Of a DNA stretch of 64,000 nucleotides, positions 25,133-35,583 are shown in pieces. The stretch covers positions 1-64,000 of the forward strand of contig CH464491.1 in the NCBI GenBank assembly GCA_000002445.1, read 5' to 3'. The translations under genes were made by a program, and so were the position numbers. How positions within the stretch are numbered: position 1 is the stretch's first letter; each line of letters opens with the position of its first letter. The notes below the pieces were generated by a model. It did not search any database. It was not told the DNA's origin and saw only the letters and a list, made by a program, of their open reading frames with translations. This DNA is from Trypanosoma brucei. Lineage: Eukaryota.

Positions 25133-28100
25133 TCACTCATCAAGTAAAATTTTGTTATCGGATATAATTACCACTGACGTGCTACTTAGTGTGCTGATGG
25201 AGTGATTGCTGTGAGTACCTGCGTAATGATCCGCCACACGCCCAACCTTCGCTGCTATTCGGTGAATTACTTCCCGACAATATTCATCATTCCATTCTTC
25301 CGTATTAGTGCGAGGAAGCGGTACACGCCAACGTTCACAGTACGGCATCAATAGTTTCTCACGTTGCTGACCTTTGAATGTTGCGAGTAACATTTGAAGT
25401 GAACTCATAATCATCTGAGCTGATTCACTTAATTCCACGCGTGATGAGCTATTCTCACTTGTGGAGTTGGTGGTTTCATTCCCATCTTCAAAGTAATAAT
25501 CATGATCCAAGCGTAGGGCTACAAAGGTACGACCCGGTACTGCATTAAGTTGGTATAATTGTACCGGTTGGGGAACACCACGCAACTGAACGGGCCCAAG
25601 TGCGGTTACATCAACTTGATGCCGCTGTGATTCACTTAAAGACATATAAGTTGCATGTGTTAGTAATACTTGCCCACCATTGGCAACACTCTCCGTGCGA
25701 GCTGCCATATTGGTGGTGGGACCGTAGTAATCGTAACCTTTTGTAACTTCATCATGTCGAATATCACAAAGCCCAGTGTGAATACCAATGCGTACACGCA
25801 AACCACTCCATAACCGACAATACACTTCAGAGTCCAGACATGCAGTAGGAGAAGTGTATTCATTATCCTCCTTTGCATTCGCTTCCTCAAACTCACGGTA
25901 GAAATTATCCAATGCATCCGTACCCCAATCATTATGTAAAAACATAAGTTGGAGGTCTGCTGCAAGTTGTACAGCCTTAAATGGGTCCTGACATGCAATC
26001 ATGAAAGAATCACCAATAGTTTTCACTTCATAGCAGTCGTGCTTAAGTACAAGTTGGCGAATCATACGGTGATGTGCTGCCACAGCTTCAGTCATAATAT
26101 CAGGGTAAGTTGCCCACTGTGCTGTGCTGCTTTCAATATCAGTAAAAATAAGTGTCACAGGATCAGTCGACTGCCTCGGTGCTAGTTCGTTATCACGCTT
26201 GTTACTGATGGTACAGTATAGTGCTACTCCAAGGGTAACAAAAAGTAATAACGCGAAAACTAAACCAATAATGATGCCAGCTACCTGAGAGGATGACAAC
26301 TGAACACGAATTTTTTTGTACACAATAGAAGGTGTCACCGGCTCCTGCATTACAGGAAAGGTGGGGTCCAATACGCGGCCGAAGGACCATACAGATATGT
26401 CTGTCGCACCATAATTCCAAACACAATTACCAGACAATTGTACACCGTTGGCAATACAATCAGAATCACTAAAGGGCCCATACCTCATATCATCAATAAC
26501 AAAGGAAGTTTGCCAAAATATTTCATCAGACAATAGGGAAGAGCTAACCTTCTTCATGGGTAACAGAAGTGTTTGCATCACTCGAGCAATGGCAAAGCCA
26601 CGGAGTGACATTGGTGACCATTGTGACGGATCGGGAACGGCTTCATGGTAAGCAATAATGGTTTCTGATGTGGAACTATTATCAGCCCAATGCGGCAAAC
26701 TAGTGGCGAAAAGCAGGCGCTGTGCCTTGGCGTTTGCAGTCACACTGAACTCTAACTTCAGTTCCTCGTAATATAATAACAAGTCCGTGAATGTTATGAA
26801 CACACGAGCTTGAGGATGGGTGTCAAGGTATTTCGATATCGTTTTCACATCGGGAGTTGTAAGTCCGAGTATGAACACGTCACCACCATGTTTCAAGTGC
26901 TCCATATGGATATCAGAAACATGTTCATTCAAAAGAACTCTGGACCCGAGTGATGCACCAAAAGTCATTAATGACATGGACAGTACCTCAGCAACTTCAG
27001 CTGCTTCATCACTCCGAATTATAGTGTGAGCAATATGATTTGTTAAACGTGAGAAATACTGCGCAAGCACATACAGTTCTTGGGTGAGCGTAGGGAAGAA
27101 GTGTATGACATTCCTTTTGAATGTGCTCACCTGAGGAAAAACCACCATAGGGTCAAAGAAGATAACACCCGGTGTGGTGAGCACCTCATTGGTTACAACA
27201 CCGAATACAGCAGAAACAATCCTTTCATCCAATGTATCATTAAGGTCCTTCGCAGCTCCTGAATATGAAGAATTAAGGGAATGAAAGAACAGCCTATCGT
27301 TGTCTCCGATGTGATCATTTCCAGTCAGTGTAACTGCACCACTAAAATACAACGAATTTGCGCGCTGGACAACGTGGTTATCAGATATCAATATCACTAG
27401 ACCACTCAGTGGCGCATAAACACGAATTCCAGTACTAAAGCAACGAGTTGTTCCCCACGTCAGGAGTCCCTCTTCAACTGCTTCCAAATGGTATTTTCCC
27501 ACCACTTCCTTCATATACACTACACTTCCTCCTTGATTGCAACGACACACGGCACCTTGAAGTTGAGCAGCACTGCCACACTCACCTCCAAAGTCACCAA
27601 TCACCATATCATCAATCAAGTAACGGCGCTGATTATAAAGTGATAATCTAAACAAGGTGCGATTTGTTAATGATATGGTGTCAACTAATGCTCGCATAAG
27701 CATCTCTCCAGCAAGCCACCCGAGAACCATCAATTCTCCACTGTTATGGTTTGTGTCAAAGTGTTCTGGCTTCGCAAAACCACCCCAGTTCTCATTAGTA
27801 TTCAAATATTTTGTCATTTCTTCACGGAAGCGTTGAATGATTTTGTATCGTGTGTCACCCGCAAGTGGACCAGTACCAGTAATAATAAGTTGACCAGGTT
27901 TTAATTCCGTATTAGTTTCTTCCAAAGCTTCCTTCCAGGTATTCAGCAGAAATGTTTGCGAACTAGACGTAGTGAGTACAAAGGCATCTGCCGTGTGATG
28001 ATCCTCTCTCAATAAATAGTGAATAAATTTTTTGGTGATGTCATGTGGAGAACCAAATAGCAACACGGCTTGTGGTCGTGTCTTCACAAATTTCTCCCAC

Positions 28101-34800: not shown

Positions 34801-35583
34801 CACAAATTTCTCCCACTCCTTGTCGAATGCGTCATCTCCAATACGCTCATTAACATTACCATCAATGGCAAATGTACCACACAACTTATATCCCATCATA
34901 GACATCACCTGCTCTGTAAAGGTATATGAAGAATCACCAAAGTTTGTGCCTTTCAGATACATAAAACCCACGCGTCGAAGTCGAAGAAATACGACAGCAT
35001 AACGAATCAGAGCAAGTAACTCAGCTTTGGGTTCAACACTTGGATAATAGAAATGAGGATTCCACCCACGAACTTCATCAGAATAAGAGAGAGGTGCAAA
35101 GGCAACTAAATCATGTTCCTCCAATTTGTCTCGAATCCAAAGTACGTTTTGGTTCCCCAGTGGTCCAACTATAACAAGAAGCTGTTCTTTACTATTCTTT
35201 ACTGCGTCATTGAAAGTTTCTTCGATTGTTTGATTGTAAGATGATGGTGTTTGTAAAGAAATTTCAAAATCAGATGCCTTTTCGACACTATTGGTTGCCA
35301 AAGATGCACTCAAACCTGCGTTGAGGGAGTTTACAATTTCGACATCCGCTTTCATATTATACATGAGATTCAGAACCTTAACAGTAACTTTGTCGGATGC
35401 TCCAACCGTGCGCATTAGCACCACAGTAGCCACTAATGCTGCGAATAATAACTTGCGGATGTGTGCGTGCCGTCGGTTATTTGCCATCAGCGGCAAACTC
35501 CTGTTGGTTGGCACTGGTGGTGAATGAAATGTTACAGCTTTTATGGTTGTAATGACGTCCCTGTAGCACATGGTTAAAGACAC
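31849..35583 (-). CDS. GRESAG4: Receptor-type adenylate cyclase, GRESAG4/ESAG4 family, copy 2 (1244-aa ORF). The probable start is the Met at ~35487 (MANNRRHAHIRKLLFAALVATVVLMRTVGA signal peptide)
   Basis: Same domain structure as copy 1. It differs in the N-terminal ~130 aa and in a ~70-aa internal block. Confidence 0.9.
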   Translation of the reverse strand: MSLTMCYRDVITTIKAVTFHSPPVPTNRSLPLMANNRRHAHIRKLLFAALVATVVLMRTVGASDKVTVKVLNLMYNMKADVEIVNSLNAGLSASLATNSVEKASDFEISLQTPSSYNQTIEETFNDAVKNSKEQLLVIVGPLGNQNVLWIRDKLEEHDLVAFAPLSYSDEVRGWNPHFYYPSVEPKAELLALIRYAVVFLRLRRVGFMYLKGTNFGDSSYTFTEQVMSMMGYKLCGTFAIDGNVNERIGDDAFDKEWEKFVKTRPQAVLLFGSPHDITKKFIHYLLREDYTADAFVLTTSSSQTFLLNTWKEALEETNTELKAGQLIITGTGPLASDTRYKIIQRFREEMTKYLNTNENWGGFAKPEHFDTNHNSGELMVLGWLAGEMLMRALVDSISLTNRTLFRLSLYNQRRYLIDDMVIGDFGGECGSAAQLQGAVCRCNQGGSVVYMKEVVEKYQFASLRRGFFLQKGSECGTLSVPLYAPMSSSIIMMADMENAHRANLRYYRGIFATFLRIFGEGRDRLYLHSLNSSYSGAAKDLIDTLDERIVSAVFGVVTNEVLTTPDVIFFDPMVVFPQVSTFKRNVIHFFPTLTQELYVLAQYFSRLTNHIAHTIIRSDEAAEVAEVLSMSLMTFGASLGSRVLLNEHVSDIHMEHLKHGGDVFILGLTTPDVKTISKYLDTHPQARVFITFTDLLLYYEELKLEFSVTANAKAQRLLFATSLPHWADNSSTSETIIAYHEAIPDPSQWSPMSLRGFAIARVMQTLLLPMKKVSSSLLSDEIFWQTSFVVDDMRYGPFNDADCIANGVQLSGNCVWNYGATDISVWSFGRVLDPTLPVMQEPVTPSIVYKKIRVQLSSSQVVGIIIGLVFALLLFVTLGVALYCTISNKRDNELAPRQPTDPVTLIFTDIESSTAQWATYPDIMTEAVAAHHRMIRQLVLKHDCYEVKTIGDSFMIACQDPFKAVQLAADLQLVFLHNDWGTDALDNFYREFEETNAKEDNEYTSPTACLDSEVYCRLWSGLRVRIGIHTGLCDIRHDEVTKGFDYYGPTTNMAARTESVANGGQVLLTHATYMSLSESQRHQLDVTALGPVQLRGVPQPVQLYQLNAVPGRTFAALRLDHDYYFEDGNETTNSTSENSSSRVELSESAQMIMSSLQMLLATFKGQQREKLLMPYCERWRVPLPRTNTEEWNDEYCREVIHRIAAKVGRVADHYAGTHSNHSISTLSSTSVVIISDNKILLDEG

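Follow-up and report, generated by a model that had tools for sequence, protein, structure and literature searches.

Receptor-type adenylate cyclases form a family of about 80 members in Trypanosoma brucei, and their ligands are unknown (PMC7719234). Two of them, here called c1 and c2, lie in tandem in the stretch of DNA analysed in this study, the first 64,000 nucleotides (nt) of the forward strand of contig CH464491.1 (assembly GCA_000002445.1), hereafter the window. The window is one end of chromosome 11 of strain TREU927. The T. b. gambiense counterpart of c2 is the first gene in the chromosome-11 record FN554974, and there, too, an ETF gene lies upstream.

Gene c1 occupies 25133-28840 on the minus strand (1235 codons plus stop). 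Its protein is 100% identical to TREU927 XP_828107, save that the NCBI model, which comprises 1171 amino acids (aa), begins at Met65. The open reading frame (ORF) extends to an ATG at 28840, and codons 1-64 (28649-28840) encode a signal-peptide-like N-terminus that is 97% identical to that of a paralogue, here called P (TREU927 XP_828239); the annotated c1 start is probably too far downstream. The c1 product is labelled 'ESAG4, putative' by NCBI, and the other ESAG-labelled match (P0019) is only 45% identical. Gene c2 lies at 31849-35571 on the same strand and is orthologous to T. b. gambiense CBH16886. Its ORF reaches 35583, where it begins with GTG, and the likely start is an ATG, either the one chosen in the T. 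b. gambiense model (35571) or the one at 35487, just before a signal-peptide-like stretch. On exact look-up with two alternative starts, TREU927 c2 was absent among the annotated proteins. Both copies contain PF25495 (E = 2e-57) and PF25493 (E = 2e-132), two domains resembling periplasmic binding proteins (PBPs) and hence Venus-flytrap-like, followed by one predicted transmembrane helix (aa 850-879) and a class III cyclase catalytic domain (PF00211, E = 4e-38; match to the GRESAG4.1 catalytic domain 1FX2, E = 5e-113). The predicted products of c1 and c2 thus display the full receptor-cyclase architecture of the ESAG4/GRESAG4 family.

Shared blocks and divergent islands

The c1 and c2 loci were compared by blastn together with 2-kb flanks, and identity was also profiled in 50-bp windows. 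As a result, exactly two matches were found, both on the minus strand. The first, block S1 (c1 27485-28467, c2 34203-35183), is 984 bp long and 98.4% identical, with 16/980 mismatches. The second, block S2 (c1 25137-27285, c2 31856-34004), is 2149 bp long and 98.5% identical (33/2149 mismatches), and runs from the remaining ectodomain through the transmembrane helix and the catalytic domain to the C-terminus, ending at the last common codon. At every edge, window identity falls from 0.98-1.00 to 0.34-0.54 inside a single window. Homology stops with the coding sequence: c1 ends in ...LLDE-TGA and c2 in ...LLDEG-TAG, and no similarity between the 2-kb flanks was detected by blastn. The original prediction, made by inspection of the DNA, had described the two genes as ~95% identical, with two divergent places, a common C-terminus and homology confined to the coding region. 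The near-identity is confirmed at the higher values given above, the two places are real with boundaries displaced by no more than about 20 bp, and the confinement to coding sequence stands; the C-terminus is common only as far as LLDE, c2 having one extra codon.

The internal island measures 199 bp in both copies, where it is ungapped and in frame, and 117 of its 199 positions are mismatched, a contrast with the shared blocks that is highly significant (Fisher p = 5.5e-120). The c1 allele (27286-27484, minus strand; aa 453-518) is 41% identical to c2 and 64% identical to P at the nucleotide level, and the c2 allele (34005-34202, minus strand) is 45% identical to P. The encoded segments share 27% identity, remain colinear and keep the conserved YAP, RAN and DRL.LH motifs. 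An inverted internal block was ruled out by alignment scores of -42 for the reverse complement vs -17 for the forward strand, and a compensated frameshift was ruled out by the nucleotide identity itself, 41%. The N-terminal island covers the first ~124 codons (c1 28468-28840 vs c2 35184-35487; 206/372 mismatches). Within it, the part peculiar to c1 (28468-28640, minus strand; aa ~68-124) is 62% identical to P and 36% identical to c2 in amino acid sequence, and the c2 allele (35184-35487, minus strand) encodes the predicted signal peptide and the beta1-alpha2 elements of the first flytrap-like domain.

Age of the segments and exchange between the copies

To date the segments, the proportion of synonymous differences (pS) and the synonymous (dS) and nonsynonymous (dN) distances between c1 and c2 were counted by the Nei-Gojobori method. 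The shared blocks are young, with pS 0.033, dS 0.033 and dN 0.011 in S1 and pS 0.039, dS 0.040 and dN 0.009 in S2. Inside the islands, synonymous sites are at or close to saturation: pS is 0.87 for aa 1-64 of the N-block (dS saturated, dN 0.65), 0.72 for aa 65-124 (dS 2.29, dN 0.75) and 0.81 for the internal block (dS saturated, dN 0.88). The islands are therefore anciently diverged sequences that adjoin very recently shared ones, which excludes simple rapid evolution. An origin of both island alleles from the same ancestral sequence through very fast positive selection in one copy, with no recombination, is accordingly very improbable. It would agree with the positively selected sites reported in the cyclase ectodomain (PMC2386149) and with the place of the internal block among the least conserved ectodomain stretches (mean identity 0.28-0.35), but it would have to accommodate saturated synonymous sites beside a dS of 0.03-0.04 immediately outside, a drop in identity that takes no more than 50 bp, from about 0.98 down to about 0.35, and a dN of 0 in the blocks between TREU927 and T. 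b. gambiense. The sliding-window alignment that the original prediction called for shows abrupt edges, and the gradual decay that it named as the alternative is refuted by the pS range of 0.72-0.87 and by the near-invariance of the blocks between strains.

The same arrangement of blocks is present in TREU927, in T. b. gambiense DAL972 (for c2) and in a third T. brucei strain (for both copies). T. b. gambiense CBH16886 is c2-type in both islands. In the third strain, CAA09952 is c1-type and CAA09951 is c2-type; we take these to be the published GRESAG4.4A and GRESAG4.4B (genes of Naula et al. 2001, Mol Biochem Parasitol 112:19, cited in PMC6027212), the pairing of accessions with names being our assumption. 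Their islands match the respective TREU927 types at 97-99% amino acid identity (97% for the c1 internal block), and their shared blocks are 97-98% identical to the TREU927 genes. Between TREU927 and T. b. gambiense, the c2 internal island differs at 1 of 199 nt, with dN = 0. This near-invariance indicates that the two alleles of each island are long-established and stable and are held by purifying selection, and that they are not strain novelties. It also bears on whether the mosaic could be an assembly artefact, produced by collapsed or chimerised reads of cyclase paralogues in the reference. Assembly is difficult where repeats of 2-3 kb are nearly identical and a telomere is close by, and the T. 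b. gambiense assembly was templated on the T. b. brucei reference (PMC2854126). Nevertheless, the independently cloned CAA09951 and CAA09952, which come from a different strain, have the same block combinations, and T. b. gambiense c2 combines the blocks in the same way with substitutions of its own, so that such an artefact is hardly credible.

The shared blocks tell a different history from the islands. The distance between the orthologous c2 genes of TREU927 and T. b. gambiense (dS 0.058 in S1 and 0.038 in S2) is matched or exceeded in closeness by that between the paralogues c1 and c2 (0.033 and 0.040), and the breakpoints between segments of differing history are discrete, as in interlocus gene conversion and concerted evolution. 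When c1 and c2 of TREU927 were compared with c1 and c2 of the third strain, amino acid variants in the shared blocks grouped by strain at five sites (246, 268, 274, 277 and 1012), as where both TREU927 copies have HDITKKFIHYLL and both third-strain copies have HDTTKKFIQYLV. Grouping by copy was seen at one indel only (aa 281-282), where T. b. gambiense c2 has the c1 state. In addition, nucleotide sites polarised with P as outgroup support conflicting groupings, the counts for (c2, T. b. gambiense c2), (c1, c2) and (c1, T. b. gambiense c2) being 7/4/1 in S1 and 7/2/7 in S2, and the informative sites are clustered along the sequence. These conflicting and clustered groupings imply several exchanges between c1 and c2, not one, and exchange since the strains diverged.

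The P paralogue and the origin of the segments

P is present as a tandem pair, Pa and Pb, on T. b. gambiense chromosome 11 (411-434 kb; locus L002) and only once in T. equiperdum (locus L003), and the DNA of both loci was used for comparison. The distance between c1 and P is roughly uniform, with 24-36% nucleotide mismatch and dN of 0.14-0.25 across both its own segments and the shared blocks: mismatch is about 27% in the N-terminal segment peculiar to c1, 27% in S1, 36% in the internal block and 24% in S2, with about the same values for c2 in S1 and S2. The segments peculiar to c2 are far more distant from P, at 52% mismatch in the N-block and 55% in the internal block, and their dN of 0.55-0.77 compares with 0.22-0.25 for the segments peculiar to c1. 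The uniform distance suggests that c1 is one coherent lineage and the sister of P, and the high values for c2 suggest that its blocks derive from a much more distant lineage. Likewise unique are the c2 flanks, on the 5' side and over the first ~465 nt on the 3' side, both with orthologous sequence in T. b. gambiense.

No donor for the c2 blocks was found among 41 retrieved cyclases, where the best candidates reached 40-44% amino acid identity; outside the c2 orthologues, the closest relative of the N-block is 44% identical and none of the internal block exceeds 40%. Neither block matched the cluster representatives of 5.8 billion proteins, a search restricted to representatives in which T. b. 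gambiense c2, a non-representative cluster member, was likewise not returned. No further cyclase fragment that could serve as a donor was detected within the window by tblastn or self-blastn, and among the sampled family pairs there was no case of a block common to otherwise divergent paralogues.

A partner locus elsewhere can be identified only for the first ~200 nt of the c1 N-block and 2.5 kb upstream. This P-like tract (28640-31386, minus strand) comprises most of the c2-c1 spacer, the c1 5' untranslated region (UTR) and the first ~200 nt of the c1 coding sequence, including the signal peptide. Its part at 30806-31386 resembles the P 3' flank (92%), its part at 28964-30806 is 96-99% identical to the Pa-Pb spacer, and its part at 28640-28964 corresponds to the P 5' UTR and the first ~200 nt of the P coding sequence (about 98%). 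Overall, the 2.7-kb tract is colinear with the Pa-Pb spacer of T. b. gambiense and the beginning of Pb; its identity ranges from 87 to 100% and averages about 96%, compared with about 74% in the gene bodies, and the dS between c1 and Pb over the first 64 codons is 0.039, as young as the blocks shared by c1 and c2. This ~96% match to a cyclase locus situated at a distance of about 410 kb in the T. b. gambiense assembly is newly described here. The T. b. gambiense P duplication consists of two 4.95-kb units with a 1.84-kb spacer between them (L002 14822-16663); this spacer is missing at the single-copy T. equiperdum locus, and its ends are the ends of P homology in the window. These relations would fit a P array built or repaired with the c2-c1 locus as template, and would fit equally an origin of both loci from an array with the spacer, which was later lost in single-copy genomes by recombination between Pa and Pb. 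It is also conceivable that the likeness of the T. b. gambiense spacer stems from guidance of that assembly by the TREU927 reference. Moreover, c1 of the third strain has extra P-like patches (LFNTTVERTNN, DKT) that TREU927 c1 is without, suggesting that short imports from P are polymorphic.

On this evidence, the explanation that we favour, with a probability of roughly 70%, is that conversion continues to homogenise two old tandem paralogues in which two islands persist, and that exchange with the P locus has taken place recently. The genes c1 and c2 would be old GRESAG4 tandem paralogues in a unit reading toward the chromosome 11 telomere, and recurrent interlocus gene conversion, that is, copying during homologous-recombination repair, would hold about 3.1 kb of coding sequence near-identical. 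The first ~124 codons and the 199-bp block would have escaped conversion as relics of earlier divergence. In this scheme, c2 would descend from a far more divergent lineage, from which its flanks, its N-terminus and its internal block survive; the remainder of its coding region would have been overwritten by c1-type sequence, whether through two tracts or through a single interrupted one. Conversion would thus have run from c1-type sequence onto c2, and the islands may have persisted through selection for two sensor modules, through the ~55% mismatch blocking heteroduplex formation, or through both. Separately, the c2-c1 spacer and the c1 5' end would have been exchanged recently with the P locus. 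What the data show directly is where the breakpoints lie, how old the segments are, that the shared blocks evolve in concert, that both alleles of each island are conserved and that a tract is shared with the P locus; the direction of conversion and the causes of island persistence are inferred.

Several points weigh against this explanation. The direction of conversion follows from parsimony and not from an outgroup with an unconverted c2, and the outgroup used for polarising, P, is noisy at about 74% identity. A tract running from S1 to S2 should carry the 199-bp island along, so that its persistence needs an added assumption, be it selection or a mismatch barrier. The comparison covers three strains only, and c1 of T. 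b. gambiense lies beyond the assembly end. The donor search covered annotated proteins and 90%-cluster representatives, and left unassembled subtelomeric or expression-site copies unsearched at the DNA level.

In the opposite polarity, which the original prediction implied, c1 and c2 would have arisen as near-identical copies by a recent duplication, and foreign blocks from cyclase paralogues would later have been pasted into them in the manner of mosaic variant surface glycoprotein (VSG) genes. The edges are indeed sharp, in frame and replacement-like, the c1 5' ~200 nt and the upstream spacer are about 96-98% identical to another locus, the P-like patches of the third strain show that short imports from P occur, and the same internal region is discordant in further arrays (see below). 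However, neither c2 block has a found donor, and no sampled block is common to otherwise divergent paralogues. Furthermore, the copies have no common flanks and their homology ends at the stop codon, which is unexpected for a recent duplication; the c2 N-block runs without a break into a unique 5' flank, so that an import tract would end in non-homologous DNA; and the block alleles are fixed across strains. A recent duplicate with foreign blocks is also less economical, because both flanks would need replacing as well and the donors cannot be found. We regard this origin as unlikely. Of the original proposal of segmental conversion, then, a recombinational mosaic with sharp breakpoints is upheld, and the idea of imported blocks is mostly not, since the near-identical parts appear to be the converted ones; it holds for the short imports from P. 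Swapping of blocks as in VSG mosaics is not supported, in view of the lack of a found donor for the c2 blocks, the fixation of the alleles in three strains and the unique c2 flanks. The donor search that it suggested yielded a partner for the c1 5' ~200 nt and none for the c2 N-block or the c2 internal block.

Island positions, genomic setting and significance

An AlphaFold model of c1 aa 1-880 (predicted local distance difference test score, pLDDT, 83.5; predicted template-modelling score, pTM, 0.77) was matched by Foldseek to LivK/LivJ-type binding proteins (target TM-scores 0.72-0.77) and to the flytrap domains of class C receptors, in keeping with the original prediction that the divergent parts lie in the extracellular domain, which is similar to type I PBPs. 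In the model, the N-terminal island (aa 1-124) takes in the signal peptide and, from the first domain, beta1-alpha1-beta2-alpha2; S1 begins with the strand at 126-130. The internal island (aa 453-518) comprises a loop, a strand (478-485), a helix (489-505) and the next loop, S2 beginning with the strand at 517-524; these elements, the linker and beta1-alpha1, open the PF25493 domain (start aa 475), the second flytrap-like domain. Each island is thus predicted to take in the opening beta-alpha units of one of the two flytrap-like domains, a correspondence that is new here. In a comparison of twelve subfamily representatives, conservation within the ectodomain is among the lowest at residues 451-525 (mean identity 0.28-0.35) and is highest at residues 401-450, just before them (0.74 and 0.56).

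The internal position is discordant in other members of the family as well. P0017 (TREU927) and P0022 (T. b. gambiense) are 14% identical in the block and 92% elsewhere, P0007 and P0014 are 49% identical in the block and 93% elsewhere, and P0004 and P0006 have low-identity blocks at aa 478-516. P0006 is recorded as 'Hypothetical protein Smp_112590 [Schistosoma mansoni]' on a 17.4-kb contig; it is a full-length receptor cyclase, 83-84% identical to T. brucei GRESAG4 proteins, and is probably trypanosome DNA contaminating the schistosome assembly. In a T. b. gambiense chromosome 4 array (L004), the neighbours g0 and g1 are 100% identical over most of the coding sequence and the whole spacer, and have a ~240-bp block of 32-58% identity at the position homologous to the internal island, where the g0 allele corresponds to TREU927 P0017. 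An independent array therefore has an island at the same internal position, which is reported here for the first time. Identity in L004 1-10000 is further interrupted by other patches, one at the C-terminus (about 120 bp) and the rest in the N-terminal half; the array member at 14344-18058 includes a run of N. The recurrence of a spared module across arrays makes selection for sensor diversity plausible, or else a barrier of ~55% mismatch flanked by conserved motifs. That the islands are selected specificity modules, kept different between homogenised neighbours across several GRESAG4 arrays, is possible, and we put it forward tentatively.

The window begins with 47 copies of the telomere repeat CCCTAA (4-288) and 45 copies of a 29-bp subtelomeric repeat (273-1578), followed by an a-type VSG gene at 2912-4348 on the minus strand, which reads telomere-ward (PF00913, E = 4e-106), and by about eight 70-bp-type repeats (6076-6685). 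The layout of 1-6685 resembles a small VSG expression site, in which a promoter was not identified. From the 70-bp-type repeats to 63.7 kb, all long ORFs are on the minus strand and hence read telomere-ward. An ESAG4 gene in the strict sense would be flanked by an expression-site promoter and the telomeric VSG and accompanied by further ESAGs. The cyclases sit 21-31 kb upstream of the telomeric VSG with its 70-bp-type repeats, and housekeeping genes (ETF, BipA-like GTPase) lie directly upstream of them on the same strand. Nine ORFs from the VSG-to-cyclase interval and the spacer gave zero Pfam matches, and no further ESAG-like ORF was recognised among them. Upstream of the 70-bp-type repeats lies an inverted repeat of 171 nt (7995-8165 and 10342-10512), whose arms are 93% complementary and separated by 2.2 kb; the ORFs in and around it have no Pfam match. 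Upstream of c2, 38220-39000 matches a second place in T. b. gambiense (L001 3799-4597) at 93%, which indicates that sequence between c2 and its upstream neighbour is repeated locally. The spacer, when scanned with bacterial promoter and terminator models, which are irrelevant to trypanosomes, scored at background level.

That tandem arrays of T. brucei undergo gene conversion and evolve in concert has been described, with arrays of cyclases serving as examples (Jackson 2007, BMC Evol Biol 7:54, PMC1855330), and subspecies-specific cyclase duplications, including a chromosome-11 unit of 6755 bp, are reported in the T. b. gambiense genome paper (PMC2854126). The arrays described there resemble the c1-c2 pair in their conversion-homogenised tandem cyclases with discrete breakpoints, in the differing phylogenetic signals of coding sequences and UTRs, and in occasional exchange in trans. 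The pair differs in that its conversion is confined to the coding sequence, whereas many arrays are described as homogenising their spacers too. The portions of these sources that were consulted neither list the subtelomere-proximal chromosome-11 pair nor describe a recurrent escape of the block at the start of the second flytrap domain. VSG mosaics are similar in the copying of segments between paralogues by homologous recombination to give chimeric surface-protein genes. In contrast to them, the c1-c2 arrangement belongs to the germline, is the same in all three strains and reflects mostly homogenisation, and donors of the c2 blocks were not found among annotated proteins and cluster representatives; a partner is known only for the c1 5' ~200 nt instead of for each segment, and variation of the mosaic between the three strains was not seen. 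The tandem HMA4 paralogues of Arabidopsis halleri also have homogenised stretches broken by persistently divergent segments, as far as the available text goes (PMC3749932; bioRxiv 10.1101/2025.10.29.685298). They belong to another organism and family, and there selection on the islands was modelled or tested, compared with its inference for c1-c2. The c1-c2 pair is thus a well-resolved new example of the published conversion of cyclase arrays and not a VSG-like generator of diversity; the general mechanism is already known, and the gain is incremental.

In summary, in the c1-c2 pair and in the chromosome 4 array a constant transmembrane and catalytic module is homogenised repeatedly, and short ectodomain segments and UTRs stay distinct. 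Gene trees of the cyclase family consequently depend on the segment used. Receptor-cyclase diversification is linked to modulation of host immunity and to how the parasite behaves in the fly, and the islands, of about 66 and 124 residues, offer small and concrete targets for domain swaps aimed at ligand specificity. If they are selected modules, they would mark the determinants of ligand or partner contact in these orphan receptors, and each array would provide identical signalling modules with different sensor heads and UTRs.

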